Origin: a virus
Taxonomy: Duplodnaviria; Caudoviricetes
Strand: one strand, 5' to 3'
Virus record (IMG/VR): IMGVR_UViG_3300027193_000501
Location: 101,922 to 165,921 of that record
Length of the DNA stretch: 64,000 nucleotides
The notes beneath the pieces are model-generated. The model searched no databases. It saw nothing but the letters and a program-made list of their open reading frames with translations, and was not told the DNA's origin. Positions 25,841-61,432 of this stretch are shown piece after piece. Made by a program: the position numbers and the translations under genes. The number at the start of each line of letters is the position of its first letter. Within the stretch, counting starts at the first letter, position 1.

Positions 25841-25863
25841 ACAAGCCTAACCTCCAGTGTAAC
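25841..25863 (+). repeat. Half-site of the 22-bp cassette palindrome
   Basis: acaagcctaa-cctc-cagtgt matches one arm plus flank of the 47.9-58.2 kb repeats. Confidence 0.65.
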
Positions 25864-25915
25864 ATAATAGAAATTTAGTGTTGCTAGTGTTATAGTAAAT
25901 GTGATATATTAGGGC

Positions 25916-43527: not shown

Positions 43528-44385
43528 ATGTCCAAACCTTTATTCATATGGGCTGGCGGTAAAAATAAAATGTTAAAACATTATAAGCCGTGGATGCCTA
43601 AAACAGTAGATAAATATTTCGAGCCTTTCTTCGGTGGTGGCGCAATGTTTATCCACGTATTTAATAATTATAAACCTGATGAAATGGTGATTAATGATAT
43701 AAATACAGATATAGTTAGAATATACAAAACGATTAAATCAGATTGTAATTCTTTTATTAAAATATTAGACAATCTATCCCAACAATATTTACCATTAGAT
43801 AAAGAAAATCGAAAAGAATTTTATTATTCCTTACGACATACACACGCTTATGATTATTTAAAATGGGACGCAACAGAAGAAGCGGCTAATTTATATTTCT
43901 TAATGAAGACTGGATTCAACGGTATATTCCAAGTTAATATAAATACAAATAATCGTTTCGGAACACCATCAGGATTATTAAACCAAAAAGATAAGGTGTT
44001 CGATAAGGATGTTGTTCTCTGGTGGAATAAAGCACTACAAAATACCACCATTCTTTCTGGAGACTGGAAAGAAACAACATCACTAGTAAAAGATATCCCT
44101 GACACATTTGTATTCTTAGACCCACCGTATAGAGGCTCGTTTACTTCTTATGGTCAAACATTCAATGACAATGACCAAACAAACTTAGTAGAGTTCGCAA
44201 AGAAATTCGAGCATACTAGAGTGTTCTTATGTAATCGAGATATAGAAGATAATTTTTATGAAAATATCTTAGAGGACTTATTAATAAATAAATATCCTGT
44301 TACCTATACAGCAGGAAGAAGAAAAAAGACAGAAGATGGGTTTGAAGCGAAGAAAGCAACAGAAGTATTGATTAGAAATATGTAG
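43528..44385 (+). CDS. dam: DNA adenine methyltransferase (Dam/D12 class)
   Basis: WAGGK, EPFFGGGA, NDIN, FNG, FLDPPY. Confidence 0.9.
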   Translation: MSKPLFIWAGGKNKMLKHYKPWMPKTVDKYFEPFFGGGAMFIHVFNNYKPDEMVINDINTDIVRIYKTIKSDCNSFIKILDNLSQQYLPLDKENRKEFYYSLRHTHAYDYLKWDATEEAANLYFLMKTGFNGIFQVNINTNNRFGTPSGLLNQKDKVFDKDVVLWWNKALQNTTILSGDWKETTSLVKDIPDTFVFLDPPYRGSFTSYGQTFNDNDQTNLVEFAKKFEHTRVFLCNRDIEDNFYENILEDLLINKYPVTYTAGRRKKTEDGFEAKKATEVLIRNM

Positions 44386-44414
44386 AATTATATTTACATG
44401 AAGGGAGGATTATA

Positions 44415-45056
44415 ATGATATTACAAGTTAATCCTACAATCAATGTTTCTTTCAATGTGGCTCCCGGTTTGCTCATTAAACCTGAAGAAGTAATGGAGAT
44501 TCCTCACACTGTTTATGTTAATAACTTTGATGAGGAATCTTCTAAATTATTTTTAGAAGACTTTACTAGAGCAAGCAATTCATTTCAACCAATTATTCCT
44601 ATTATTATTGATTCTTACGGCGGAGATGTTTACTCATTATTATCTATGATTGATGTTATAGAAAATTCGAGTAAACCAGTAGCAACCGTATGTGTCGGTA
44701 AAGCAATGTCCTGTGGTGCTATTCTGCTGTCTTGTGGGCATAAAGGACATAGATACATAGGTAATCATGCAACAGTTATGATTCACGATGTATCAGCTTA
44801 TTCTGACGGTAAATTTGAAGAAGTAAAATCGAACGCTAGAGAAACTACTAGACTGCAAAAAGAAATGTTTAATATATTAGACAAAAACGCAGACAAGTTT
44901 ACTGGCTATTTCGATAGATTAGTTTTTCGAAGAGGCAGAAGTGATTGGTATATGAAAGCAGAAGACGCACTAAAACATGGAATAGCAGACCACATAGGCG
45001 TTCCAAAGTTTACCGTAGATATTCTTACTGTTTGCAAATTCTCCCTTGACAAATAA
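44415..45056 (+). CDS. ClpP-like protease (second copy)
   Basis: IDSYGG, GKAMSCG, MIHD, DWYM.AEDAL..GIADH. Confidence 0.85.
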   Translation: MILQVNPTINVSFNVAPGLLIKPEEVMEIPHTVYVNNFDEESSKLFLEDFTRASNSFQPIIPIIIDSYGGDVYSLLSMIDVIENSSKPVATVCVGKAMSCGAILLSCGHKGHRYIGNHATVMIHDVSAYSDGKFEEVKSNARETTRLQKEMFNILDKNADKFTGYFDRLVFRRGRSDWYMKAEDALKHGIADHIGVPKFTVDILTVCKFSLDK

Positions 45057-46871: not shown

Positions 46872-47135
46872 ATGAGAAAAGACACCACAAAAATAATCGC
46901 TTTCATCTTGCTCTTTGTCACTTGGATTACTTTTGCTAAATTACAACAAGATAAGATTAATAATAGTAAAAATATTATTAAAGCACTATGGTATGAAAAT
47001 AAAATACTAAAAGAATCTCTCCAAGAACAAACATTACCAGAGTCTGAATACAAGATAATGAATTATTTTAATTATACGAATGAAGCAGACCTAAAACAAG
47101 AATATAATAATTATCTCAAATGGAAACTACAGTAG
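46872..47135 (+). CDS. Single-TM hypothetical protein
   Basis: N-terminal TM helix; leaderless start. Confidence 0.55.
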   Translation: MRKDTTKIIAFILLFVTWITFAKLQQDKINNSKNIIKALWYENKILKESLQEQTLPESEYKIMNYFNYTNEADLKQEYNNYLKWKLQ

Positions 47136-47483
47136 ATAACTAATTCTAACACAAGGGTCTCCAAATAAATATAATGTTCTAACTTCAACACCAGATATAT
47201 ATTTATTTGTATCATCAGGAAATACATTAGCCCTGACAAGCAAATCCATAACAGGTTTGATATAATTGTCAGGGTCGTTCTTCCTAGACCAAACATGATT
47301 CACCATTAATAATATTTCTACTTTAACAGGATATTCAGTAGGAGAAGACAAATCAACAAGAGGTAAGTTTGCTTCTATCCACTTATTATATTTCTTACTC
47401 TTACTCATAACCCCACGAGCCAATGGGACATACATATTATTAGCAGAAAATAAACTATATAACATACATGAAGTTTTTATCAT
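47127..47483 (-). CDS. rusA: RusA-family Holliday junction resolvase
   Basis: SANNMY...KNDPDNYIKPVMDLL....FPDD. Confidence 0.8.
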   Translation of the reverse strand: MIKTSCMLYSLFSANNMYVPLARGVMSKSKKYNKWIEANLPLVDLSSPTEYPVKVEILLMVNHVWSRKNDPDNYIKPVMDLLVRANVFPDDTNKYISGVEVRTLYLFGDPCVRISYLL

Positions 47484-47917: not shown

Positions 47918-48134
47918 ACTAGATTTATATTATATTACACTGGTACTTAGGCTTGTAAACAAGCCTAACCTACAGCCTTAAATAATAAGAATCGTTCCCA
48001 ACAATTCCTGTTATATTACACTGTCGGTTAGAGCCGGACGTTTAATGGAAAGTTAATATAAATATAATCTTGCTACACTGGCGAAGAATGATATAATTCT
48101 ATGTCGCACCCGTTGCGACGAGGAGATTTGGAAA

Positions 48135-49460
48135 ATGTCAGATAACAACAACCGTGCATCGTTCATCGAATTTGGCGATGCTGTGCCTGTAGCACAACCA
48201 AACAATTCTGTATTCGGCAATGAGACCGGTTTGCAGGTTCGTCCTGATTCTGTTGCAAAGCAGGACACCAACGGCAATTGGGTAAACGCTATCGGCTTGG
48301 CAAGCACGGAAGCGCACCGCCACGTTGCTAAGGTATGGCAGGACAAGTGCATCTCACTTGACGATGCATACACCGTCATCAAGCAGGAAGCAACAACAAA
48401 GTTTGACCTTACTGTACCAGAAGAGCAGGTACGCTTGGTCGAACCGTTCAAACTGGTGAACGGAACACCTATTAACGAATCCGGCTTGGAGGCTCTGCGT
48501 TTGCTTACCGGTAACGTCAACAACCCTGCCGTACCGGGCAAAACCGTGGAATTCCAATTGGAGCATGGTTACACTGGTGACCTTGTACGCTACATCAATG
48601 ACGGTCTTAACCGCCGGTCGGCAGATTATCGTGCGGGCAAAGAATTCCGCCTACGTTGCCGTAAGACCGATGATGGTTCGGATATCGTCCGGGCTATCGT
48701 ATCTGACCGCTACGGGGTCATAGATAACGATGAAGCACTAGGGATGGTAATTGACGCTTTGCCATCGTTGCAGGACGCTCTTGCATCACACTGGTGGAAT
48801 GACGGTGATTCGGTCATCGGTAACATTCTGTTGCCCGACCACATGAAAAGTCAACCGGATTCCGACTACGGTGTTGGCATCTCATTCCGCAACAGCGAGA
48901 TTCGCAAGTCGGCGTTTACCATTGCACCATTCTTATTCCGTGCCATCTGCCTTAACGGAATGATTTGGGGACGGCGTACATCTGCCATCGGCGTGAACAA
49001 AAAGCACTTAGGTATCATCAACAAGGATGACCTTAAGCAAAGCGTTGCCCATGCCATCGGCGTAGCCCTTACCGAAGGTAACGATATGTTAACCTTGATG
49101 GGCTACTCCAAGCAGGTAACGGTCAAAAACGTAGAGCAGACAATTGCACTGTTTGCCCGTGACCACAAGATGACCGTGGAACAAGGTAAGGCATGGCACA
49201 AGGGCTACTTGGAGACCCTACAAGAGCCAAACGGTGAGGTATCCGACCGTACCGCATTCGGCATCGTCAACGGTCTTACACGGTCTGCACAGGGCTACAC
49301 AGGGCATATGCGTGAACACATGGAAACGACCGCATCCATCATTCTCGCACCTGCCATCGATGCGACCTTGGATGCCATCCGCAAGCGTTGGAACACCGAA
49401 TCCAACAAGGCATCCACGCTTGATGCCCGTACCGTAGAGCAGTATGTGTACATCGGGTAG
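48135..49460 (+). CDS. DUF932-like protein, GC-rich cassette
   Basis: RAIVSDRY..IDN, GISFRNSE, FLFRAICLNGMI, T.FG.VNGLT. Confidence 0.7.
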   Translation: MSDNNNRASFIEFGDAVPVAQPNNSVFGNETGLQVRPDSVAKQDTNGNWVNAIGLASTEAHRHVAKVWQDKCISLDDAYTVIKQEATTKFDLTVPEEQVRLVEPFKLVNGTPINESGLEALRLLTGNVNNPAVPGKTVEFQLEHGYTGDLVRYINDGLNRRSADYRAGKEFRLRCRKTDDGSDIVRAIVSDRYGVIDNDEALGMVIDALPSLQDALASHWWNDGDSVIGNILLPDHMKSQPDSDYGVGISFRNSEIRKSAFTIAPFLFRAICLNGMIWGRRTSAIGVNKKHLGIINKDDLKQSVAHAIGVALTEGNDMLTLMGYSKQVTVKNVEQTIALFARDHKMTVEQGKAWHKGYLETLQEPNGEVSDRTAFGIVNGLTRSAQGYTGHMREHMETTASIILAPAIDATLDAIRKRWNTESNKASTLDARTVEQYVYIG

Positions 49461-49688
49461 GGCTTGGGAGGGAGGGGGAAACCCCTCCCTGTTTGACCAC
49501 ACATTCCCAGCTTTGTCAAGAAAATATTTCAATTATTTTTTACTGGCGGTTAGGTTTGTTTACAAACCTAAGATACAGCCTTAAATAATAGAATTCTGTA
49601 ACGATCGGATCGCTATCACGAAAAATCTATTTTGTCAAATTTATTTTTTAGTGTTGCATATGTTATTTAAATGCTGTAAGATAGAGAC

Positions 49689-49985
49689 ATGAGCCTAGAA
49701 ACCACATGGAACGCCTCGTTCCAATATATCCCCGTCTTGGAAATGACCTTGGTCAAATCCACCGCTGTAAAAGCATTGGCAATCGTAGAGGATTGTGTCT
49801 ACGTAGAATTTAACAAAAGTCGCAAAGTTTACATCTACCAGTGTGGAGAAGGATTCTGCGACCTGATAAAGCAAACCGTAACGAACGGTGGCTCCTTGGG
49901 CAGACTGATGCGTCTGCTGTACACTGAAGACCCGGCAGAATTCTCTTGTTGGGGCGGTGAAGTATCTTACAAAAATACATTGTAA
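49689..49985 (+). CDS. KTSC-like domain protein
   Basis: VKSTAV...VYVEF....VYIY...GSLGR. Confidence 0.5.
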   Translation: MSLETTWNASFQYIPVLEMTLVKSTAVKALAIVEDCVYVEFNKSRKVYIYQCGEGFCDLIKQTVTNGGSLGRLMRLLYTEDPAEFSCWGGEVSYKNTL

Positions 49986-50185
49986 GATACTTAGTAAAAC
50001 CCTCTGGAGAAATTCAGAGGGATTCTTTTTATTTAAGGCTGTATCTTAGGTTTGTAAACAAACCTAACCTTCAGTAGAAAATAATAAGATTATCATCAAT
50101 TTATTTCTACATCACCCCTTGCACTATAGCATCTGTTAGCCTATAATACGTTGTAGATAAATTCTACACGGAGATAGTAACAAAG

Positions 50186-50770
50186 ATGGCAATCGGAATT
50201 CAACCCGGCTCAAGAGGAACGGCTCATCCTCAGAGCGTTCAGCAGATGTTGGCACTCGGTCACATTGTTGACCATTATGTACAGGAAGCATCTAAGCATT
50301 ATCCTACCATTGGATTCAAAACCAAAATTTCGAGTGTGGACTATCCCGGAGGTCTTGGTCTTATCGACTTTGGCACGGGTATTCGATACACCGGTGAAGG
50401 TGTTGTAACGATGGACAATGACCCTATCCTTATGATTACACGGGTTCATTGTGAGAGCGGAGCGGATGCATCAAAGAAATGGTTCCACAAGAATTTCTGG
50501 TATGAAACAATTCGAGCATCCAAGGAAACTCATTTCACCCACCTTACATTTGTTTCTTGTAATGACTCCGGCTTGTACGATGACCTGAAGCGTATTTTCC
50601 ATGTTGTTGTAAATCGTGAGAATTCGAGTCACGGTTTCAATCAAGTTAGAATCGGCAAGAATGTCATTATGATTTCCGACTGTAGTTTTACTAGCAAGGA
50701 AATCGAAAACACCGTTCGAGAGGTGTTGATGGATTGTGCTGAATTTCATAATCTGTCGAAAAAGCTGTAA
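50186..50770 (+). CDS. Possible degenerate EcoRI-like restriction-endonuclease-fold protein
   Basis: Resembles the EcoRI pattern (..HKN..E.HF..L.F) but lacks PD...EAK. Confidence 0.35.
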   Translation: MAIGIQPGSRGTAHPQSVQQMLALGHIVDHYVQEASKHYPTIGFKTKISSVDYPGGLGLIDFGTGIRYTGEGVVTMDNDPILMITRVHCESGADASKKWFHKNFWYETIRASKETHFTHLTFVSCNDSGLYDDLKRIFHVVVNRENSSHGFNQVRIGKNVIMISDCSFTSKEIENTVREVLMDCAEFHNLSKKL

Positions 50771-50885
50771 TCTGTAGAACTTTCCTGTTCACTCTTAAAT
50801 CCCTTGTTCGAGTAGCAAGGGATTCTTTTTATTTAACACTGGTGCTTAGGCTTGTAAACAAGCCTAACATACAGTAGAATATAAT

Positions 50886-51212
50886 ATGAATGAAAAACAA
50901 TGGATAGATAAAATAATTCGAGAGTGTTATTTGAACATTGGAAATTTCGATATCAAATTCGCAATCCAATTAAAAGGAAAAAGAAATTCGAATATCGAGT
51001 TCGTATCTATTTCGAAAAGATTTATGAACGTTTCGATGATAGACAGAAAAAAGCATCAAAAGTTCTACAGTATGATGAGAGACAAGGATGCAAATTTAGA
51101 GTTACTATCAGAATATCACATTTCTCACAATATATCAAGTAACGGAGCAAAATATCTCTGGGAATATTACAACAAAATATACCAGAAATATCTCAAGTCT
51201 GGTAAAATGTAA
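50886..51212 (+). CDS. Hypothetical protein
   Basis: ORF directly after a palindrome. Confidence 0.5.
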   Translation: MNEKQWIDKIIRECYLNIGNFDIKFAIQLKGKRNSNIEFVSISKRFMNVSMIDRKKHQKFYSMMRDKDANLELLSEYHISHNISSNGAKYLWEYYNKIYQKYLKSGKM

Positions 51213-51213
51213 C

Positions 51214-51558
51214 ATGGAATCTAAAGTTTGGATTTATTTCTCTAAAACAGGAACAGGCTATGAAATGTCCGGTTCTGATATTATTTCAGGGATTGATGCT
51301 TTTATACTTAAGGATGGAACTTATCTTATTGAATATTCCCATAGTGAATTGATAAACGAGATGCATTTCTTTATTTATCAATGGGACAATTCTCAAAAGA
51401 GACGTAGAACTATTTATGAGGGATACCAAAAAGAAAAGATTCTAATGGGTATGGTTAAGGACATTGATAAATTACCTCTAAATGTATCTAGTAAAATTTT
51501 AACAATGTATTACAACGAAAATGAAGAATTGGATTTAGAGAAGAATGCAAACGTCTGA
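51214..51558 (+). CDS. Hypothetical protein
   Basis: Operon ORF. Confidence 0.55.
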   Translation: MESKVWIYFSKTGTGYEMSGSDIISGIDAFILKDGTYLIEYSHSELINEMHFFIYQWDNSQKRRRTIYEGYQKEKILMGMVKDIDKLPLNVSSKILTMYYNENEELDLEKNANV

Positions 51559-52051
51559 ACAAAAATTAAAATATCTATATAAAACTATAGAAACACTTTG
51601 GCATGGTACAGATACAAATACTGGTGATTATCCAAAGATTATTAACTTATATAAAGAAGTGTTAAAACTTAATCCCAAAGATAGAGATGCTTGGGAGAAT
51701 ATGATTTGGCTGTTCTGGTCTTTATCAATTAATAATAAAGATACTGGATTATTGTTAGAGGCAGAGAAATTTGCTAAGAGATATCTATCAGTAATGCCTA
51801 ATGGTTATAGGTCTTACGAATATTTAGGCATTGTATATCGTTCTATGGTTAAAGATGAAAGATTAGCCATTAGATATTATGAGAGTGCTGTTCGATGGAA
51901 AGATTGTCCAGCATCTACATATAATTCTCTTGTAGCATTATGTATCAAGAATAAAGAAAAAATAAGAGCGAAGGATTATTGTATCCTCGCCCTTAAAAAA
52001 TATCCCAAAGATAATTATTCCATTATGAGATTAAAAGAAGTTAATCAATAA
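51545..52051 (+). CDS. Tetratricopeptide-repeat protein
   Basis: YKEVLKLNPKD..AW; YEYLGIVY...AIRYYESA; ALKKYP. Confidence 0.8.
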   Translation: MQTSEQKLKYLYKTIETLWHGTDTNTGDYPKIINLYKEVLKLNPKDRDAWENMIWLFWSLSINNKDTGLLLEAEKFAKRYLSVMPNGYRSYEYLGIVYRSMVKDERLAIRYYESAVRWKDCPASTYNSLVALCIKNKEKIRAKDYCILALKKYPKDNYSIMRLKEVNQ

Positions 52052-52457
52052 TAGTAATCTTATCAAAACCTACTGTGAAATAACGTCCAGTAGGTTTATT
52101 TTTTTTAAGACCTCTAACCACCACTAAATGATTATTAGATGTGTTAAAACTATCATAAACAATACCAAACTCTTCTTCCCCAGATTTATCTATCCACTTT
52201 ACTTTGAGACCGGGTTCGATTAATACTTTTTCCTGTTTATTTAATATCTCTTGTAATTTAAAATTCATTTCATCTGATTCATGGGACAGTTTATTAATAT
52301 CAGCCCAAAGAGATGAATTCTTTGCTCTTAATTCTGTTATTTGCTCAGATACAATATTATTCAATTTCATTAGAGAAAGGTTATCTTTCTTATGCTGAAT
52401 AATTACATAAATGGCAAAAAGTAATGATATACTTAACATTGCTAAGATTGTCGTCAT
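52041..52457 (-). CDS. TM plus coiled-coil plus SH3/Tudor-like protein
   Basis: N-terminal TM helix; PGLKVKW...GIV. Confidence 0.55.
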   Translation of the reverse strand: MTTILAMLSISLLFAIYVIIQHKKDNLSLMKLNNIVSEQITELRAKNSSLWADINKLSHESDEMNFKLQEILNKQEKVLIEPGLKVKWIDKSGEEEFGIVYDSFNTSNNHLVVVRGLKKNKPTGRYFTVGFDKITIID

Positions 52458-52761
52458 AATAGTACCTCTATTTATATTTTACTTTAATTGTTATACTAAT
52501 ACTTTGCAATAACCTTAAATGCTGATATAATACACTTGATGTTCGATACTGACATCTGTTTGTTATCTCCTTTCAAAAGAGAAAAGACAAGGTAAAAAAA
52601 TACCTTGTCTTTTCTCTTGCTATATTATGTTTGATGTCCTATAATACAGATGTTCATAGGTTTTCATGTTACTCGGTTGCTGTCCCTTAAAAAGATAGCA
52701 ACCTTTTTTTATTTGCATTTTATTTCTGGCGTGATATTATAGATGTAGGAGAAATAAAACA

Positions 52762-53070
52762 ATGGATTTTGTCAGATTGTTACTAGTGCTGATACCTGTA
52801 GGACTATTCATTTCCTACTATGTATTGTTTCATATGGTTGGAGCAGGTTCTATGACTGCTATCGGAATGGTTTCTACGGCTATTCTAGGTCTTGCTGTTG
52901 TAACCAAAGTTATCACTTTTGTATTGCATCGTGATTTCCCAGATATGTTCTTCTTGTGGAACCTTTGGGGAGTGATGTGTTTCCCTATCGGAATTGTTCT
53001 ATCAATATCACACCAAGAACATAAAAGCCTGTTGTGTAAATACCTTGATAAGATAAACGCTCCACAATAA
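52762..53070 (+). CDS. Membrane protein (3 TM)
   Basis: Promoter, RBS aggag, hydrophobic helices. Confidence 0.65.
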   Translation: MDFVRLLLVLIPVGLFISYYVLFHMVGAGSMTAIGMVSTAILGLAVVTKVITFVLHRDFPDMFFLWNLWGVMCFPIGIVLSISHQEHKSLLCKYLDKINAPQ

Positions 53071-53112
53071 AATTATATTGCAAAGGCTTGTTTTGTTTGA
53101 TAATATATAAAC

Positions 53113-53280
53113 ATGGAAAACACTACAAGCCCAATGTTCTCACTCTTCGTTACACAAGCTTTTGAAGAGTTGTCAAAACAACACCCTGATATGTCCAAAG
53201 AAAACCTCATGGAACAAGCGATAGAATTAGCATATGAACGATGGGATTCTTATGTAGAATCTGAATATTTCCAAGGCTAA
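53113..53280 (+). CDS. Small protein (55 aa; absent from ORF track), paralog of 54278 and 54694
   Basis: MENTTSPMF...HPD...L.E.A.E.A.ERWDS....EYFQG; leaderless. Confidence 0.65.
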   Translation: MENTTSPMFSLFVTQAFEELSKQHPDMSKENLMEQAIELAYERWDSYVESEYFQG

Positions 53281-53417
53281 TAATATACAACCCTGAATAA
53301 CATCAGGGTTTTTTTATTTAACACTGGAGGTTAGGTTTGTTTACAAACCTAAGATACAGCCTTAAATAATAAGAAATATAATTTGCAATATATCAAAATA
53401 TGGCTTATCATACAGGT

Positions 53418-53738
53418 ATGGAAAACACTACTATCAAGCCTGTCACTAAAAAGACCAAGGTAGAATTAACTTATCGTCAATGGATGCGAATTATCAATTA
53501 CTTTGCTTTGTCTGTATGCGGTATAACTGTCAGCCATATTTCAGATTGGTCTTGGAGAGATGAATTCTGCGAAGACCTGACAACTTTAGAAAACCACATC
53601 AACAATGCACGGGAAACTTTTGAAACTTTCCTCGCTGATGTAGAACCGGGACATTATAATCAGATGGTTAATGAATTTCCAAAGTTAACTGAAGACTTAC
53701 TCAAAAACAAAGACCTCTTGGGCAAGGTTGTAGCATAG
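53418..53738 (+). CDS. Cassette hypothetical protein (leaderless)
   Basis: TTGCAA-N17-TATCAT-6nt-ATG. Confidence 0.65.
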   Translation: MENTTIKPVTKKTKVELTYRQWMRIINYFALSVCGITVSHISDWSWRDEFCEDLTTLENHINNARETFETFLADVEPGHYNQMVNEFPKLTEDLLKNKDLLGKVVA

Positions 53739-53851
53739 GCTACAACCTTGTTTCTTTTATTTAACACTGGAGGTTAGGTTTGTTTACAAACCTAAGATAC
53801 AGCCTTAAATAAAAAGAAATATCCCTTGACTTTCATCAAGGGATATGGTCA

Positions 53852-54103
53852 TTAGAGGGAGGCTTGTTTTGCCTTTAATTCTTCAATCGCTTCTTTGTGC
53901 TTTATCGATTCTTGCTTTGCAGTTTCAAAAACATTTGCGATTTCAATAAGTGTAGCAGTGTCATACTTGTCTGCCTTGATTCTACCGCTCTCGATAAGAC
54001 TCTTAAGTCTATATATCGATGCTTCCATATATCCCAAACGAAACAAGTAATCAAAATTCTTTTCTTGATTACTCCGATACAGCTGTTCATAGAAACTTTC
54101 CAT
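53852..54103 (-). CDS. Cassette hypothetical protein
   Basis: Own promoter and terminator between palindromes. Confidence 0.6.
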   Translation of the reverse strand: MESFYEQLYRSNQEKNFDYLFRLGYMEASIYRLKSLIESGRIKADKYDTATLIEIANVFETAKQESIKHKEAIEELKAKQASL

Positions 54104-54277
54104 CTTCGTTACCAACCTTTCACTATCAATTTACAGCATTATGAGGCTGATTGCAAGAAATATGTTAATAATAATCTTATTATTTTCTGCTGTGTCTTAG
54201 GCTTGTTTACAAGCCTAACCTGCAGTGTTAAATAAAAAGAAATATCCCTTGATTTTCATCAAGGGATATGATAAGGA

Positions 54278-54484
54278 TTACTCTCCTTGAAAGTAGTCTG
54301 CGTTTTGTTCGCTGTCCCATGCTTCAAGGGCTTTTTCTTCTGCGTCTTGCAGAAGATCTTCCAGAGTTTGTTCTGGAAATTTGATCTTCATGTAATAAAG
54401 TTCTGCTGACACCAAAGTTTTGTATGCAGACTCGCCTGTGACGTGTGACCAGACAAACTGATCGATAGTAGGAGTGGTTTTCAT
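54278..54484 (-). CDS. Cassette hypothetical protein
   Basis: Leaderless; ends WDS...DYFQGE. Confidence 0.65.
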   Translation of the reverse strand: MKTTPTIDQFVWSHVTGESAYKTLVSAELYYMKIKFPEQTLEDLLQDAEEKALEAWDSEQNADYFQGE

Positions 54485-54693
54485 GACTATAGTTTACAAT
54501 ATAATTCTACATTCTGCCAATTTATTATTTTTCTTGACAACTGATCGGATCTGTGATAGAGATCCACGCTAGTGATCGGATCCTGATCATTATTCTTATT
54601 ATTATCTGCTGTGCCTTAGGCTTGTAAACAAGCCTAACCTGCAGTGTTAAATAAAAAGAAATATCCCTTGACTTTCATCAAGGGATATGATTT

Positions 54694-54909
54694 CTATGAA
54701 TACACTCTGTTGAAGTGTAGGTAATCTTTGTTTTTTTCCCATTGTTCGTTTGCATATTCTGTTGCATATGGGAGCAACTCTGAAAGTTGCTTTGTTGGAT
54801 ATTGGCTTACCAAGTCTTTCAAAGCATACACAACGTAAGCCTTGTAGTGTGAGCCTGTAGCACTGTTGACGTTTTCATCGACGAATTGGTTGATTGAAGT
54901 GTTTTTCAT
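54694..54909 (-). CDS. Cassette hypothetical protein
   Basis: Paralog of 54278 (I.QFV...YK..V...P...L.ELL..A...A...W). Confidence 0.65.
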   Translation of the reverse strand: MKNTSINQFVDENVNSATGSHYKAYVVYALKDLVSQYPTKQLSELLPYATEYANEQWEKNKDYLHFNRVYS

Positions 54910-54918
54910 AATTATAAT

Positions 54919-55173
54919 TTACAATGCCATTATCATATCAATGTCTTCAGCACTGATTTGAAGTGAAATATGTTGTTTGTGATTCTTGAAATATATAGCA
55001 GGAGTCCAACCCATAGCGTAGTACTCTTGGAATTTCACGGCGGCTAATTTCCAAAGTTCAACAGAATTTCCACTAAAAGGGAATTCAAGGTAAGCATCCA
55101 AATGTTGGATGTCATTATAATTTGAGACGCAAAGATGCCCAGAAAGTGCTGGTGCAGGAGTTTGAGTTTTCAT
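54919..55173 (-). CDS. Cassette hypothetical protein (leaderless)
   Basis: TTGCAA-N17-TAACAT-6nt-ATG. Confidence 0.65.
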   Translation of the reverse strand: MKTQTPAPALSGHLCVSNYNDIQHLDAYLEFPFSGNSVELWKLAAVKFQEYYAMGWTPAIYFKNHKQHISLQISAEDIDMIMAL

Positions 55174-55469
55174 GCCTGTATGTTACAGTGAATTTACAAA
55201 CATTGCAATAAATAATTTTATTCTATTCTCATATTTGCCATTACAGGCTTTATTTATTCATTACCATATAGTTATTCAATATCATTCATAACTCTTGTGT
55301 ATGAGCATTGTAGGGGCTTACAGAGGCATTTGTATTTGTTAGATTATCCTGTAATTGATTTAATGAATAATCTTATTATTATCTGCTGTCGGTTAGGCTT
55401 GTTTACAAGCCTAAGACACAGTGTTAAATAAAAAGAAATATCCCTTGATTTTCATCAAGGGATATGGTA

Positions 55470-55670
55470 CTAGCCTGGTAGGGTTTTGACTATTAGCAGG
55501 TTGTGAGACACATGGTAGGTGTGCTTGAACCTGTCTGTATAGATACTCTTACCTAACCGTGCGATGATGTCTGCTTCGGACATTGACGGGGTAATGCCAA
55601 TCTGTCCGAGGGTAAAGAAGTGCATATGGCCAGTCGGTTCTTCGACTTCCACTCTGGTGTTTGTGTTCAT
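55470..55670 (-). CDS. Cassette hypothetical protein (leaderless)
   Basis: TTGCAT-N17-TAAAAT-5nt-ATG. Confidence 0.6.
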   Translation of the reverse strand: MNTNTRVEVEEPTGHMHFFTLGQIGITPSMSEADIIARLGKSIYTDRFKHTYHVSHNLLIVKTLPG

Positions 55671-55821
55671 ACCTAATTTTACAGGCAATTGCAACATAAT
55701 GCAATGTATATTTAAATAATATTTCTATTATTTTCTGCTGTCGGTTAGGCTTGTTTACAAGCCTAAGACACAGTGTTAAATAAAAAGAATTCCCTTGAAT
55801 TTCTTCAAGGGAATATATCGT

Positions 55822-56064
55822 TTAGTCTTCGCCGTATGCGGAATCAATTCTTTGACTGCAATGTTCACAGTATAGTTGTTCAGATTCCCAATTAACGTCC
55901 CTATGTGTGACGTACCATTGGTCGTCATTTGTATCACTGCACAATTCCAAATTCTTGTTAACACATTCAGGACAGAGAGCGCATCTGTCTGTTGTGACGT
56001 AGAACAGCGGATATCCACCGTCTGCGCACACGTCTACTGGCTTGCCGTCAACTTTGAATTCCAT
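55822..56064 (-). CDS. Cassette Zn-binding phage protein
   Basis: GGYPLFY...LCPEC...VNWE...YCEHC...I.SAYG. Confidence 0.7.
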   Translation of the reverse strand: MEFKVDGKPVDVCADGGYPLFYVTTDRCALCPECVNKNLELCSDTNDDQWYVTHRDVNWESEQLYCEHCSQRIDSAYGED

Positions 56065-56243
56065 AGTTTCACCTAGGGTCAGAGTGAATTTCCATCATAG
56101 GATTATCTGACAATACTAATTTACAGCATTTCAAGAGAGAATGCAAATTATAATTCTATTATTTAAGGCTGTATGTTAGGCTTGTTTACAAGCCTAAGCA
56201 ACAGTGGAATATAACAGAAATTCTGCTATATTCCTTTGCTTGA

Positions 56244-56555
56244 CTACGATTGTACGCTTGTGACAATCGCCTTTGCAGTAGACAACCAGTTGGACGCTAC
56301 TGTCTTACGGGCTACAACCATGATACGTTGCGCCTTCAATTCTCTTACAACCTTGACCTGCTCTGCAACCATGGAGTCGATTTTAGCCTCACGGGTTGCT
56401 TCGTTGCTACCCAATTCCTTTGGGTCTACGGTGATGCGAATATGAGCCTTTGCATCTTCAAGGGCATTCTCTGCGTGAAACAGCTTGAGGTCGATTTCTG
56501 CCAATTGCTTGACGAGTTCGTTGGTTTCTTTGGTGATGGTGTTTAGTTCGGTCAT
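56244..56555 (-). CDS. Cassette coiled-coil protein
   Basis: RBS ggag; GSNEATREA. Confidence 0.65.
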   Translation of the reverse strand: MTELNTITKETNELVKQLAEIDLKLFHAENALEDAKAHIRITVDPKELGSNEATREAKIDSMVAEQVKVVRELKAQRIMVVARKTVASNWLSTAKAIVTSVQS

Positions 56556-56744
56556 TTGTTACTCCGGTCAGTGCAGGTCAATTCCTACATACTGATAATA
56601 TCTCACTGCAAACAAGACTGCAAGGAATTTATGAAAAATAATCTTATTATTATCTGCTGTGTCTTAGGCTTGTAAACAAGCCTAACCTGCAGTGTTAAAT
56701 AAAAAGAAATATCCCTTGACTTTCGCCAAGGGATATAATAAGGA

Positions 56745-57050
56745 TTACCCGAAAATTTGTGCTAGTGAGAGGTTATCCTCCGATAGCCTGTTACGGTTTG
56801 CGTTTTTGGCATCACGCACACGAGCGTAACACGCATCGTTATAGTCCTCGTCACCGTCATAATAAGACGAAGAATCGAAATTGCCCATTTCCGTGAGCAA
56901 ATTGGAAAATATCACTGCCTTGGCTTGGCGATGCTCAGGCAACTCGGAATAAGGCGAATTCCAGAAATTGTCAAATTCCGCCCTACCCTCCGCAAAACCG
57001 ATTGGGAATGACTTAACCCATAATCGTTGATAAATTTGTTCTACTTTCAT
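56745..57050 (-). CDS. Cassette hypothetical protein
   Basis: RBS aggag; promoter and terminator. Confidence 0.65.
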   Translation of the reverse strand: MKVEQIYQRLWVKSFPIGFAEGRAEFDNFWNSPYSELPEHRQAKAVIFSNLLTEMGNFDSSSYYDGDEDYNDACYARVRDAKNANRNRLSEDNLSLAQIFG

Positions 57051-57375
57051 GCTAACTCCTATCAACCAACTTACAATACTAGTATAGGATTAAATTACAC
57101 GCTTTGCAAGTTTATTTTTAAATTATTTTTCATACCAAATTTTGCCATTATAGACTAGATTTTATCAATACCAAGTAGTTATTCAATATCATACATAACT
57201 CTTGTGTATGGTCATTGTGGAGCCTTGTAGAGGTATTCACACTTGACAGAATATGTGTGTAACAACTGGATAGCATTCTTATTATTATCTGCTGTAGGTT
57301 AGGCTTGTAAACAAGCCTAACCTACAGTGTTAAATAAAAAAATCCCCCTGACATTTATCAGAGGGAATATCTAGA

Positions 57376-57615
57376 TTATACGAGGGTGTCTTTAAGAGTT
57401 CCGCCGTTTTTGAACAACTGCCAGAAAATTCTAAAGCGGATGTAGGTGACTGGGAGGTTAAGCCATTCTACAGGGGTTTCCTCGCCCTCTGGAGTTACAT
57501 AGTGGATATTACGCTCCTTTGTCGCTTCAACGAATTTGGTTATTTCATCACTAGCCAGACCCCGTTCTTTGTCAGAGGTCAATTCCGCATAGGTTTTGCT
57601 CAAAATTTCCTGCAT
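57376..57615 (-). CDS. Cassette hypothetical protein
   Basis: RBS aaggag. Confidence 0.65.
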   Translation of the reverse strand: MQEILSKTYAELTSDKERGLASDEITKFVEATKERNIHYVTPEGEETPVEWLNLPVTYIRFRIFWQLFKNGGTLKDTLV

Positions 57616-57812
57616 CTGGTTTCTCCTTGTAGACTGGAGCCTACATACCTATATTACATCATTTAAATAACATATGCAACACTGAATTTATATTATTATC
57701 TGCTGTGTCTTAGGCTTGTAAACAAGCCTAACCTGCAGTGTTAAATAATAAGATAATTAATTTGCATCCTATGTAGCATATGATATTATTATATTGAAAG
57801 TGAGATAGTCAG

Positions 57813-58070
57813 ATGATTGAACAATTGCACTATGTAGATGCATCCAATATCTTTACAGCTATTGAGATGGATCAGGGTGACGTGAATGAGTTCTTGGAGC
57901 GGTTTACATACAGTGATAACATTACAAAACCGATTATCCAAAAATTCGCTTTCATTCGTAGCCTTAATGGTTTCTTGGAATCTGTTGCTAATGGTGAACA
58001 AATTAAAAGCGATCTGAAGGAATACTCGCTATACAATCTTATGCAATGCGGGTTTGTTTGTATCGACTAG
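57813..58070 (+). CDS. Cassette hypothetical protein (inverted relative to neighbours)
   Basis: Promoter after site 57710; shared terminator before site 58129. Confidence 0.65.
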   Translation: MIEQLHYVDASNIFTAIEMDQGDVNEFLERFTYSDNITKPIIQKFAFIRSLNGFLESVANGEQIKSDLKEYSLYNLMQCGFVCID

Positions 58071-58266
58071 ACTTATCATATCCCTTGATCATTGTCAAGG
58101 GATATTTCTTTTTATTTAAAGCTGTGTCTTAGGTCTGTAAACAGCCCTAACCTGCAGTAGAATATAATAAGAATAATGGTAATAGGTATTATGAATAATA
58201 TATATGCTGTGTTAACAATGTGGGCAATCGTGTTTATAATATTAGTAGTGGAGAATATTATAGAAC

Positions 58267-58578
58267 ATGATAGTTAATTTGCTGGGCAGGACAGTTTCGG
58301 TTTATTCTAATAATCATTTTATCACATTATTAGCAGATATGCCAAAAGCAGAAATATTTTATTCTACCCTTGACACCATAGACATTTCAGGATATACTGT
58401 TAACATCAAAGAGATCAAAGAGATAAAGATACCTGAACCACAACAAGGCATATATTATTTAGTGGACAAAACAATAGCCTTATCTTTACACAGGGATGAT
58501 CTTTTATATCTGGGCAAGCCTCTCTTATATAATGATAAAGGTGAGCCCATATCTGCTTTTTTATTAGAGAAGTGTTAG
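58267..58578 (+). CDS. Conserved hypothetical protein
   Basis: IPEPQQGIYYLV...RDDLL...NDKG.I. Confidence 0.6.
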   Translation: MIVNLLGRTVSVYSNNHFITLLADMPKAEIFYSTLDTIDISGYTVNIKEIKEIKIPEPQQGIYYLVDKTIALSLHRDDLLYLGKPLLYNDKGEPISAFLLEKC

Positions 58579-58835
58579 GGGGGTATATTTGAATTTTAGA
58601 TACTATATGGATCCGCACACCGGCAATTTAATTTTCATACCCTCACTAATCGGCAAGTATATTCTCACAGACTATAGGGGGGGCTATATAAATAATTGAA
58701 TTCCCAGAAATAGCCTAGTATCTTTTCTGAAATTTCTGGAATTTAATTTTCTGGAATGTTATGGGGGGCTATAAATTTAATTGAATTCCCCAGAAATATA
58801 ACCATCCTTTTTTTTGTATGTGGTATTATAGAGAT

Positions 58836-59744
58836 ATGAATTTTTCAGAATTGAATCTAGTAAAACTAAACAATTATAATCATTTAGTTCCTGACCCGTA
58901 TATAGATGATTTTTTGGATAAGATGGTTGTTTTGCGTGAATTTGCCGAAAAATATGATAGTTCTATTAGCAAAAAAGAAAAATTATCATCTGATTATAAG
59001 AACACTCAAATATATATTGAAAAGTGCAAAAAAATCCATGGTAATAAGTATTGTTATCCCTACACTGTTTATCTTAATGAAAACACTGATGTAATCGTGT
59101 TTTGTAAGACTTGTGTAAGATTTTTCCATCAGACACCAAATGAGCATATTCAAAATGGTTGTTCATATTGTAAAAGAATGGATCAATTGGCAAGGAAAGA
59201 AATATCGCAATCAGATTTCGAAATAATAGCTAAAAAACGTCATAAACACACTAATTATGATTCTATTAGATTTAAATCTTATAATCATATTGTAGAGAAT
59301 ATTCTTTGCACTTTATGTGGTGAATATTTTGATATTTTAGGTCATGCTCACATTAGACCAGTAAAGCCTGATGGATGCCCTAATTGTAGTAGAAGTAAGG
59401 CTAAAATACGTGCTGAGAAATATTTGATTAAAAAAGGAATTAATTTTGATAAACAGTTTAAAGATCCAACATTAAATTTTGTAAATGATTTGAAGATAGA
59501 TTTCATGTTAAAATTTGATGATTTTATGTTAGCGATTGACTTAAATGGCAAGCATCATTATAAGCATGTCAATATAACTAAGAACATGGAATTGAATATA
59601 AGAAATTTAGAGCTATATAAGCATGGTGATACGTCTAAGGTTCATTGGTGTTTTAAGAGAGGTATACCTTTATTAGTGATTTCTTATTTGGATTTCAATA
59701 TAATACCAGAATTGATTGAAGAGTTTATTAAGGAAGATGTTTAA
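58836..59744 (+). CDS. Zn-ribbon-repeat / PD-(D/E)xK homing-endonuclease-like protein
   Basis: KKIHGNKY.Y..., GCPNC..SK, Q...L.IDF...AIDLNG.HHY. Confidence 0.7.
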   Translation: MNFSELNLVKLNNYNHLVPDPYIDDFLDKMVVLREFAEKYDSSISKKEKLSSDYKNTQIYIEKCKKIHGNKYCYPYTVYLNENTDVIVFCKTCVRFFHQTPNEHIQNGCSYCKRMDQLARKEISQSDFEIIAKKRHKHTNYDSIRFKSYNHIVENILCTLCGEYFDILGHAHIRPVKPDGCPNCSRSKAKIRAEKYLIKKGINFDKQFKDPTLNFVNDLKIDFMLKFDDFMLAIDLNGKHHYKHVNITKNMELNIRNLELYKHGDTSKVHWCFKRGIPLLVISYLDFNIIPELIEEFIKEDV

Positions 59745-60528: not shown

Positions 60529-60634
60529 TCTAAGTTATTCCACTAAAGATCTTATTATATATATTCATTTGTAAATATTTATATCCTTTTATTTGGGAAG
60601 CTTTCGGGTCTCTCTTTTTTTGTATATATATGGT

Positions 60635-61432
60635 ATGGCTGCAATTATATCACCGGAAGAAATTGATTTACGTGCTTATGACAATAATAAGACTATAATT
60701 TGTGAAGTTGAAAAGAGACGTACATACAGATATTTTAAGACTAAATGTAATTTGTGTGGTATAGAAAAAGAACAACGAATAAATGAGTTTTATCTCTGTA
60801 AAGGATGTGCGATAAATAAATCGATAATTAAAAAAACTAAAGATACACCATTGTTTATAGAACAATCAATAAAAGTTCATGGATATAAATATGATTATAG
60901 TGGATCATATTATGAAAATTATAGTATACCGTTAGAAATAAAATGTAATGATTGTAATACTGTATTTTATCAAAGACCTTATATTCATATAAGAGGTTCG
61001 GGTTGTCCAATATGTAATGAATCTAAAGGTGAATTGTATTTAAAAAAGATATTAAAAGAAAATAATATAGAATTTAACCCTCAGCATCCATTTCCAGGTC
61101 TTAGAAATATAAACCCGCTCAAATGTGATGTATATATTCCAATTGTTAATCTAGTAATCGAAGTAGATGGAGACGGTCACAGAAAGGCTATTTTTGGATC
61201 CACTCCTGAAGCAAAACAAAAGAATTTAGAAGATACTATTAGAAACGATGCTATTAAAGATAAATATTGTGAAGAACATGAGATTAATATTTGTAGAATT
61301 CCTTATTCGAGTTCTGACAAGGATTTAAGTTTTATTGGAGAGATAGCAATGAATTGTTATAATGATCTTAGAATAAAATATAATATCAATATGTTAGATT
61401 TTAACAATGAGGAAAATGTAAATGTCTTATAA
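60635..61432 (+). CDS. Zn-ribbon / Vsr-like PD-(D/E)xK homing-endonuclease-like protein
   Basis: KVHGYKYDY, GCPICNESKGE, LKCDVYI...IEVDGDGH, D.IKD.YC...I.RIPY. Confidence 0.75.
   Translation: MAAIISPEEIDLRAYDNNKTIICEVEKRRTYRYFKTKCNLCGIEKEQRINEFYLCKGCAINKSIIKKTKDTPLFIEQSIKVHGYKYDYSGSYYENYSIPLEIKCNDCNTVFYQRPYIHIRGSGCPICNESKGELYLKKILKENNIEFNPQHPFPGLRNINPLKCDVYIPIVNLVIEVDGDGHRKAIFGSTPEAKQKNLEDTIRNDAIKDKYCEEHEINICRIPYSSSDKDLSFIGEIAMNCYNDLRIKYNINMLDFNNEENVNVL

Follow-up and report, generated by a model that had tools for sequence, protein, structure and literature searches.

The last 64,000 nucleotides of a 165,921-bp virus record in IMG/VR (IMGVR_UViG_3300027193_000501; Duplodnaviria, Caudoviricetes; positions 101,922 to 165,921 of the record), here called the window, contain an array of small gene cassettes that are separated from one another by copies of a short palindromic DNA site. 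CheckV places the record at 46% completeness, and the full phage genome is probably about 360 kb. The window has a GC content of about 32% and encodes tRNA genes together with rIIA and rIIB. With respect to the T4 superfamily, both rII genes are present, and rIIA is less than 30% identical to its counterparts in known phages (the best tblastn match in the phage collection searched is 28% identical); no near-identical DNA was found in that collection. The gain, loss and reshuffling of accessory genes in large lytic phages are only partly understood. To our knowledge, promoter/stem-loop elements (PeSLs) are the one described mechanism, known from a few cultured T4 relatives.

The array occupies positions 47947-58150 of the window, and every cassette boundary within it carries one copy of a 22-bp palindrome with the consensus TTAGGYTTGT-WW-ACAARCCTAA, present as 14 exact copies and one degenerate copy. 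The pattern TTAGGYTTGTWWACAARCCTAA returned 14 matches between 47947 and 57731 against 0 expected from 100 shuffles, and the 15th copy, at 58129 (TTAGGTCTGTAAACAGCCCTAA), differs by one symmetric double change and one unpaired position. No further copy lies outside the cluster in the rest of the 165,921-bp record, no other repeated palindromes were found between 24 and 47.9 kb of the window, and the palindrome occurs in 0 of 185,579 prokaryote genomes. C-type arms surround an AA core at sites 1 (47947-47968), 4 (50846-50867), 8 (54616-54637), 12 (56664-56685), 13 (57299-57320) and 14 (57710-57731), and a TT core at sites 7 (54197-54218), 9 (55393-55414), 10 (55745-55766) and 11 (56176-56197). 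T-type arms surround an AA core at site 3 (50046-50067) and a TT core at sites 2 (49550-49571), 5 (53331-53352) and 6 (53774-53795). The degenerate site 15 (58129-58150) reads TTAGGTCTGT AA ACAGCCCTAA, a variant also kept in one relative, L019. Several sites stand at distinctive junctions: site 1 is a promoter-promoter junction from which the operon of P0002 and a RusA-like gene runs leftward and the first cassette rightward; site 6 is a convergent, terminator-terminator junction; and site 14 is a divergent, promoter-promoter junction. Site 4 is followed by TTGTAA-N17-TAGAAT and by TATAAT, in front of a 2.5-kb cassette without any other promoter, and at site 7 the core is flipped relative to the asymmetry of its own flanking four bases.

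Twelve of the 14 intervals between sites hold a single open reading frame (ORF), the exceptions being 50846-53331 with six and 54616-55393 with two. The cassettes are self-contained, with their own sigma70-type promoter and intrinsic terminator, and they occur in both orientations, gene directions converging at 53774 and diverging at 57710. Pfam assigns no family above its cut-off to 18 of the 20 cassette proteins, a DUF932 and a TPR protein being the exceptions. Numbered by the cassette families defined below, the array begins on the plus strand with family 2 (47969-49549), which encodes the 441-amino-acid DUF932 protein (48135-49460; 52% GC) behind a sigma70-like promoter at 48070-48097. It continues on that strand with family 9 (49572-50045), which has a 98-amino-acid ORF (49689-49985) and is reversed in seven related contigs; family 5 (50068-50845), with a 194-amino-acid ORFan (50186-50770); family 1 (50868-53330), with the six ORFs, including the TPR protein (51545-52051) and one minus-strand ORF (52041-52457); and family 6 (53353-53773), with a 112-amino-acid ORFan (53400-53738). 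Eight minus-strand cassettes follow (families 10, 11, 12, 15, 7, 3, 14 and 13; 53796-57709), in each of which a TTGCAW-N17-TAnnnT promoter and a terminator enclose one or two small ORFans, and the array closes with family 4 on the plus strand (57732-58128; 85-amino-acid ORFan at 57813-58070). An initial annotation of the window, made from the letters alone, had reported the single ORF in 12 of 14 intervals, the convergence and divergence of gene directions, 15 sites enclosed by CTG-N4...N4-CAG, a split of eight AA to seven TT cores, and four sites (49550, 50046, 53331 and 53774) with the T/A change on both arms. Each of these observations was reproduced, the enclosing motif being present at 15 of 15 copies, one of them degenerate. 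A nearly identical promoter (GTGTTGCATATGTTATTTAAATGnTGTAA) lies at 49652-49681 and, on the minus strand, at 57660-57690, and since the two cassettes it serves are unrelated, promoters, like terminators, are reused between cassettes. Directly past site 15 there is a possible ORF for a 27-amino-acid hydrophobic peptide (58183-58266), preceded only by the TATAAT that is linked to the site.

The boundary between cassettes is a composite module in which the palindrome is the central part. In order, it comprises a terminator hairpin, a T-run, CTG-N4, the 22-bp palindrome, N4-CAG and an A-rich run with nATAAT, the TTGCAW-N17-TAnnnT promoter lying further on. Followed from the centre to the outside, each half has the same plan (10-bp arm, four variable bases, CAG, a variable hexamer and an A-rich run), the A-rich run being AAATAAAAAGA, the complement of the terminator T-run, on terminator-facing sides and AAATAATAAGA on promoter-facing sides. 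Because the runs on the two sides follow this one plan, the terminator T-run mirroring the promoter-side A-rich run, the whole unit is a near-palindrome of about 68 bp, and its motifs are confined to this array. At least 11 boundary terminators are each followed by the promoter-side flank, with ATAATAAGA after the palindrome, and by a TTGCAW-N17-TAnnnT promoter. Near-identical terminators had initially been described for the cassettes in general; a terminator of the form ATATCCCTTGA-loop-TCAAGGGATAT followed by TTCTTTTTATTT does occur six times, but other terminators hold the same position elsewhere.

Relatives of the window were obtained by scanning metagenome contigs with the 22-mer, which returned 28 loci, 27 of them arrays or array ends in freshwater, estuarine and marine assemblies. 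The other locus (L025:593-614), a single match with unrelated flanks in a GC-rich 1-kb contig, was set aside as a probable chance match; a collection as large as this should yield about one such 22-mer match by chance. Searches of IMG/VR contigs for relatives found none, either with the palindrome pattern or through P0002 and a ClpP-like protease encoded to the left of the array. The loci were cut at palindrome centres and the pieces clustered into cassette families. What emerges is an unusually clean natural data set of 18 cassette families and 33 junction types, in which 18 cassette ends have more than one partner and the same cassettes appear in six classes of arrangement that differ by gains, losses, reordering and one inversion. 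The window reads 8|2|9|5|1|6|10|11|12|15|7|3|14|13|4, and its 2|9 junction was found again in an independent contig (L032). In L026, L037 and L024, cassette 9 is inverted and cassettes 11 and 15 are absent; in L020, L021 and L028, two additional cassettes (17 and 16) adjoin the inverted cassette 9. The orders 1|6|11|10|3|13|4 (L019, L036), 1|(12)|11|7|3|18|4 (L017, L031, L022, L033) and 10|(11|12)|15|7|3|18|4 (L016, L034, L035) are found elsewhere. Some relatives lack families 11, 14 and 15 or have families 10, 11 and 12 reordered, and the cassettes that relatives add contain one or two ORFs apiece. BLAST bears out the inversion of cassette 9, in that flanks and body align in opposite directions and overlap only at the palindromic sites, and the sites flanking the inverted cassette have opposite core orientation. 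Apart from cassette 9, cassette orientation is constant in all contigs despite the random polarity of the sites. Identity also changes cassette by cassette, L019 and L036 being 100% identical over four cassettes and 88% in the next. All changes of content, order and orientation are bounded by palindrome-bearing modules. The comparison across related phages therefore bears out the platform for gene shuffling that the initial annotation had proposed, order, content and the orientation of cassette 9 all differing among them; as judged from these contigs, the view of the array as a plastic, shuffled platform is supported.

Pooling the window with its relatives gave 85 distinct sites, on which the following statistics rest. 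Junctions were classed by fold energy, a crude measure, as terminator-promoter (48), promoter-promoter (22) or terminator-terminator (15). Arms are C/C at 42 sites, T/T at 38 and hybrid at 5, and the association of arm with arm is complete (Cramer's V = 1.0), that of an arm with its nearer flank being 0.78. A second symmetric double change, at positions 7/16, is found at two junctions and represents few independent events. The four-base flanks are asymmetric, with 74 of the 85 sites G-first beside one arm and CC-first beside the other, and core orientation is linked to this asymmetry, AA being associated with the CC side (Fisher p = 7e-17). The polarity so defined does not track the direction of transcription (46/46 vs 34/44), in keeping with the initial claim that core orientation does not follow that of the neighbouring genes. 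At palindrome positions 35-40, 83 of 92 promoter sides have the hexamer nATAAT and 47 of 78 terminator sides have AATAAA, and on promoter-facing sides the palindrome centre lies at about -35.5 relative to nATAAT as a -10 element. Within the window, TATAAT occurs at exactly the three places that have no sigma70 promoter nearby, namely before the P0002-RusA operon, before the 2.5-kb cassette and to the right of site 15; over all sites, the association of TATAAT with absence of a promoter is weaker (odds ratio 3, p = 0.03), although the sites are not independent. As single-stranded DNA, the site folds into a hairpin of -7.6 kcal/mol over 36 nt and, in its extended 66-nt form, of -12.2 kcal/mol (z = -4.4). 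No Rfam match was found here.

Several familiar identities for the palindrome were tried and given up. A classical sigma70 promoter is suggested at some sites by the geometries TTTACA-N16-GATAAT and TTGTAA-N17-TAGAAT, but the real core orientation scores no better on average than the flipped one; strong promoter matches are commoner with the real orientation (21 vs 6 flipped). A T4 MotA box was ruled out on inspection of the sequence, the spacing being unfit, as was a second intrinsic terminator, given that no T-run follows the palindrome. A host regulator site or a CRISPR-repeat mimic was dropped in view of the empty search of prokaryote genomes.

The exchanges that produced the different arrangements can be placed with some precision. 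A three-way comparison of L017 (1|11) with L031 (1|12|11) puts the crossover in the T-run or terminator stem, 15-45 nt off the centre, and the same holds for L019 (6|11) against the window; in both cases the palindrome and its four-base flank derive from the other parent. Between L019 and L033, the common cassette is 100% identical only outward from the A-rich run, which places the crossover between the hexamer after CAG and ATAATAAGA, and at the 3|13 junction of L019 it falls inside 26 bp that take in the palindrome. Twenty-eight contig pairs with an identity of 96% or more on one side and unrelated sequence on the other were also surveyed; their switch points lie at various places in the 70-110-bp module, from the flank on the identical side (about -35) to about +70 around the centre, and none falls specifically between the arms. 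Moreover, both core orientations occur at 9 of the 28 junction types seen in several contigs, and at 5 of 28 orthologous junctions the arm type of the entire site differs, the neighbours being unchanged in each case. Free exchange of half-sites at the core is disfavoured because hybrids, of which many would be expected, make up only 5 of the 85 sites. The initial annotation had favoured a serine-recombinase, integron or shufflon mechanism with exchange at the AA/TT core; this is not supported by the sequences compared, given the spread of switch points, the core flips, the rarity of hybrids, the preserved orientation of cassettes and the lack, in 166 kb, of the recombinase domains searched for.

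More distant phages, some on contigs of up to 357 kb, were reached through homologues of the DUF932 protein with about 59% amino acid identity. They have different palindromes in the same position, that is, between a preceding terminator T-run and the sigma70 promoter of DUF932, rIIA, rIIB and neighbouring genes. L039 has seven copies of AAAAATTC-N3-GAATTTTT within an outer repeat, TTAACAT...GTGTTAA, that resembles TTTAACACTG...CAGTGTTAAA of the window and whose promoter side often reads as an extended -10 element, TGTTAATAT; L041 has the palindrome of L039 at the same positions, the left outer repeat being more divergent. The full L039 unit is a 60-bp intergenic module, TTAACAT-N9-(C)CTAAAAAAATTC-N3-GAATTTTTTAAG-N9-GTGTTAA, found at about 9857, 11377, 13578, 14985, 16689, 18126 and 20585, in each case with a terminator on one side and, on the other, the sigma70 promoter of DUF932, rIIA, rIIB or one of four further genes. 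L040 has eight intergenic TTAGGG-N13-CCCTAA hairpins (5857, 7457, 9022, 11255, 13488, 14536, 16438 and 18823), which share a TTAGG/CCTAA foot with the site of the window. These comparisons point to the palindrome as a clade-wide boundary element that would act at the DNA level and would not be special to cassette capture. That it acts on DNA is suggested by a polarity unrelated to transcription, by the absence of wobble pairs and by its position outside transcription units.

Taken together, the region is best read as a hyperplastic "moron" block carried by an uncultured jumbo phage with rIIA and rIIB genes. As to how the block is shuffled, the account that we hold at about even odds (a probability of roughly 0.5) is that the boundaries are composite modules like those of T4-type phages, recombined by general homologous recombination and bearing a new palindromic boundary element. 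In T4-type phages, ORFs are deleted or inserted by recombination between repeated terminator-promoter modules, and the junctions of mini-circles fall at varied points in the element (PMC2839356, PMC4122927). These PeSLs, and the related PmSLs (Arbiol et al., 2010, PMC2839356; Comeau et al., 2014, PMC4122927), resemble the array in combining a stem-loop, an AT-rich stretch and a sigma70-like early promoter, in being clustered between small ORFans in a hyperplastic region, and in that relatives differ by insertion, deletion or replacement of ORFs between elements, with variable crossover points; PmSLs also pair a regulator box (the Mot box) with a -10 element. Unlike them, the array has, between terminator and promoter, a perfect 22-bp palindrome within a near-palindrome of 36-68 bp that is almost invariant over the 85 sites, and the element is also found at convergent and divergent junctions; one cassette inversion is seen as well. 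Nor does the array phage appear to be a close relative of T4, judging by the divergence of its rIIA. The independent promoter-gene-terminator units that lambdoid phages carry between genes, the original morons, are similar to the cassettes but lack a common repeated boundary site.

By this account, the general recombination machinery of the phage or its host would use the repeated modules as portable homology. Exchange between modules in the same direction would lead to deletion, insertion (possibly by way of excised circles) or allele replacement, and the palindrome with its mirrored flanks, as the sole homology in inverted orientation, would account for the rarity of inversions. The exchanges that shuffle cassettes may also keep the repeats identical, and such concerted evolution would make the full invariance of the 22 bp within the lineage explicable. 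We read the palindrome itself, from its sequence and context, as a putative recognition site for a protein, bound either as a symmetric duplex or as an extruded hairpin, with the role of operator, insulator or promoter box; where it faces a promoter, it would form part of a putative outward promoter. An operator, an insulator or a hairpin signal had been listed among the initial alternatives, and it is the one that fits better, in that other palindromes precede rIIA and rIIB elsewhere in the clade. A promoter box alone does not explain the conservation, since the palindrome stays intact at terminator-terminator junctions, and, given the need for pairing, the role may depend on a hairpin or cruciform. 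Among dispersed operators, those of the ParB/KorB type lack their protein here, the ParB family (PF02195) being absent from the 166 kb. A closer parallel is the 17-bp dyad repeat TGTTCGG-NNN-CCGAACA of Cluster O mycobacteriophages, with more than 30 copies (PMC4351075), which is likewise short, invariant, numerous and mostly intergenic, has an asymmetric centre (TTT/AAA) oriented independently of transcription, has no function assigned, and in one phage encloses between two copies a gene that relatives lack (PMC4351075). Those copies, however, are spread over the genome, are not tied to terminator-promoter modules, and belong to a different host and type of phage.

A number of observations sit uneasily with general recombination between protein-bound modules. 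The 10|3 junction (L019, L036) is alone in needing a crossover between arm position 6 and the centre, and a half-site elsewhere in the window, at 25841, starts at the exact centre, as a break or exchange there would leave it. Symmetric double changes in this lineage, at arm positions 6/17 and 7/16, and the inner stems of L040, which differ by compensatory changes without G-T pairs, point to a requirement for pairing in a hairpin or cruciform, something that a plain dimer-binding site does not need. The palindrome is at least as intact at terminator-terminator junctions as elsewhere. No binding protein has been identified, P0002 beside site 1 being an ORFan, and with about 46% of the genome in hand a recombinase could be encoded elsewhere. 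Finally, the relatives are metagenome assemblies, and short-read assemblers may switch strain or mis-orient at repeats of 70-110 bp, such that some mosaic junctions may be artefacts and single ones should not be over-read. Random chimeras are unlikely as an explanation for the arrangements at large, because every class of arrangement recurs in two or more contigs of separate assemblies.

By this account the array extends the PeSL picture to an uncultured clade of jumbo phages from fresh and brackish/marine waters, and it adds a new component, a strictly conserved palindrome at each boundary with lineage-specific counterparts before core early genes in distant relatives. Should the palindrome turn out to be bound by a protein, as a boundary or promoter element, these phages would have a new regulatory signal; were it a structure-dependent recombination site, gene capture of a new kind would be at work. 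Given its short length, the module can be synthesized and tested in laboratory E. coli.

Among the alternatives, dedicated site-specific recombination, in which a serine-type, integron-integrase-like or HUH enzyme encoded outside the 166 kb would excise, insert and invert cassettes at the palindrome, is unlikely. The form of the site invites it, with 10-bp arms about an asymmetric 2-bp core, one site per boundary whatever the type of junction, and an intrinsic polarity that links flanks to core; yet the cores flip at 9 of 28 junctions without rearrangement, some deletions would need AA to recombine with TT, and hybrid arms are found at 5 of 85 sites where about half would be expected under free exchange of C-type and T-type halves. 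Cassette 9 was inverted between sites of opposite core orientation, the crossover of the hybrid 10|3 junction lies within a few bases of the core and the half-site at 25841 begins at the centre, but several mapped crossovers fall outside the palindrome, cassette orientation is nearly invariant while site polarity is random, and the distant relatives have their element before syntenic core genes. The statement of the initial annotation that the window encodes no recombinase extends, for the families tested, to the whole 166-kb contig: a search over it for serine, tyrosine and HUH recombinases found nothing, Resolvase (PF00239) and Recombinase (PF07508) domains, Phage_integrase (PF00589), Y1_Tnp (PF01797; HUH, RAYT) and IS110-type transposases being absent, as is ParB. 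The contig represents about 46% of the genome, which leaves room for an enzyme encoded elsewhere.

Comparison with the known systems of this kind leads the same way. The crossover sites of Hin, Gin, Cin and Min (hix, gix, cix and mix) share with the array the inverted arms around an asymmetric 2-bp core, in form only, and one segment found in both orientations. Serine invertases, in contrast, switch alternative gene ends, whereas the array moves whole genes with their own signals, mostly by gain, loss and reordering, its core flips freely at orthologous junctions, and no serine recombinase was found in the 166 kb. The shufflon (Rci, sfx) likewise provides alternative ends of one gene, unlike the whole independent genes between the present sites, and PF00589 is lacking. 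Integrons (attC and IntI) have single-gene cassettes between palindromic sites, with order and content varying among relatives, as here. They differ in that no tyrosine recombinase (PF00589) is encoded in the 166 kb, the genes beside the array being an ORFan and a RusA-like gene; in that attC sites are imperfect, with extrahelical bases, and conserved in structure, whereas the 10-bp arms of the array are perfect and invariant in sequence; in that integron cassettes are promoterless, in one orientation and read from a common promoter, whereas those of the array have their own promoter and terminator and lie in both orientations; and in that the breakpoints of the array are not confined to the site. 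An unrecognised, structure-dependent exchange system, a "phage integron" without a classical integrase that would capture, reorder and invert cassettes by cutting or exchanging a hairpin or cruciform with a conserved TTAGG/CCTAA foot, is a speculative option to which we would give poor odds; its enzyme could be the RusA-like resolvase together with P0002, or one from the unseen half of the genome.

Also doubtful is a structure-driven hotspot, in which a hairpin or cruciform extruded by the palindrome, either in the course of replication or through supercoiling, would be cut by a RusA-like or Mre11/Rad50-type nuclease and repaired from any module, with shuffling as the result; templated repair inside the palindrome would in addition keep the arms symmetric and flip the core. 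The core flips without rearrangement, the half-site that ends at the centre, the compensatory stems of L040 without G-T pairs and an arm-to-arm symmetry in excess of the arm-flank association all suit this idea, as does the stability of the single-stranded hairpin. AT-rich flanks are known to favour cruciform extrusion of the C type, but arms of 10 bases are short for cruciform extrusion in vivo, and the crossovers that were mapped do not centre on the palindrome. A hotspot does not call for a palindrome conserved in full, which would have to come from concerted evolution. One candidate nuclease is a RusA-like Holliday-junction resolvase of 118 amino acids encoded at 47127-47483 on the minus strand, 0.5 kb to the left of site 1, as the second gene of the operon diverging from that site. 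Its assignment rests on Pfam (23.6 bits, borderline against a cut-off of 22.8), on three PHROG RusA families (best E 5e-7) and on the catalytic motif NDPDNYIKP...PDD (DPDN...K...DD); comparison with solved structures and a poor single-sequence fold model (predicted local distance difference test, pLDDT, 50) were uninformative. E. coli RusA cleaves 5' of CC. The first gene of the operon, P0002 (47480-47917, minus strand), is an ORFan of 140-145 amino acids for which neither a family nor a useful Atlas neighbour nor a remote homologue was found. Both genes adjoin the array in seven relatives, with 77-100% amino acid identity, a conservation that would suit the hotspot, but enzymes of the RusA type are general phage debranching enzymes, and the position of the gene may be coincidence. 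Neither the RusA-like gene nor the HNH genes to the right of the array nor the half-site shows cutting at the palindrome.

A selfish miniature palindromic element of the type of MITEs (miniature inverted-repeat transposable elements) or REPINs, spread into intergenic gaps in either direction without a function for the phage, is distinctly improbable. A conserved unit of about 68 bp with mirrored ends, a polarity random with respect to genes and the replacement of whole sites as units at orthologous junctions are what such an element might show; it would hardly occur as exactly one copy per boundary and nowhere else in 166 kb, with one arm doubling as a terminator T-run and the other bearing a conserved -10-like element, and with analogous elements likewise placed in distant relatives. 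Neither a Y1 nor an IS110 transposase was found in the contig, and no target duplications were noticed. The repetitive extragenic palindromic (REP) sequences and bacterial interspersed mosaic elements (BIMEs) of enterobacteria are comparable in being imperfect palindromes that follow terminators in either orientation, show compensatory pairing and are bound by gyrase and integration host factor. They are, in contrast to the array, a feature of host genomes with hundreds of dispersed copies and a RAYT transposase, none of which is seen in the array phage. Least probable of all is a signal in read-through RNA, either a hairpin for an RNase III-type enzyme as in T7 early mRNA or a mimic of CRISPR repeats (Racr-like). 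The extended unit does fold into a long interrupted hairpin, T7 RNase III sites are likewise intergenic and solitary repeat-like hairpins are known in phages (PMC10651486). Against such a signal, each site comes after a strong intrinsic terminator or ahead of a promoter, site polarity bears no relation to transcription, the sites have no G-U type pairs, unlike true terminators, they match nothing in Rfam, and the 22-mer is in no prokaryote genome and so has no CRISPR array to mimic.

Outside the array, the half-site mentioned above is a right half with promoter-side flank on the plus strand at 25841-25875 (ACAAGCCTAA CCTC CAG ... CATAAT), in which similarity begins exactly past the centre. It sits between a terminator and a promoter, with unrelated sequence replacing the left half exactly at the centre. 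To the right of the array are an HNH endonuclease-like gene at 58818-59744 (plus strand), variable among relatives, and a second HNH or homing endonuclease-like gene at 60593-61432 (plus strand); the HNH-like genes share 28-76% amino acid identity among relatives, compared with 79-99% for the neighbouring ORF at 58267-58578. Genes for a DNA methyltransferase and the ClpP-like protease are found at 43528-45056, 3 kb to the left of the array, and ClpP is also encoded near the DUF932-rIIA region in the distant relatives L039 and L041. In such distant relatives the DUF932 gene is immediately upstream of rIIA-rIIB, and in the lineage of the window it is an array cassette. A high GC content is a property of this gene itself, exceeding that of its genome in each case compared: 0.52 vs 0.33 in the window (48135-49460), 0.50 vs 0.38 in L039 (10001-11323) and 0.45 vs 0.34 in L040 (7633-8955). 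A recent foreign capture was considered as the source of this high GC content and rejected, the gene being equally GC-rich in the distant relatives, where it adjoins rIIA.

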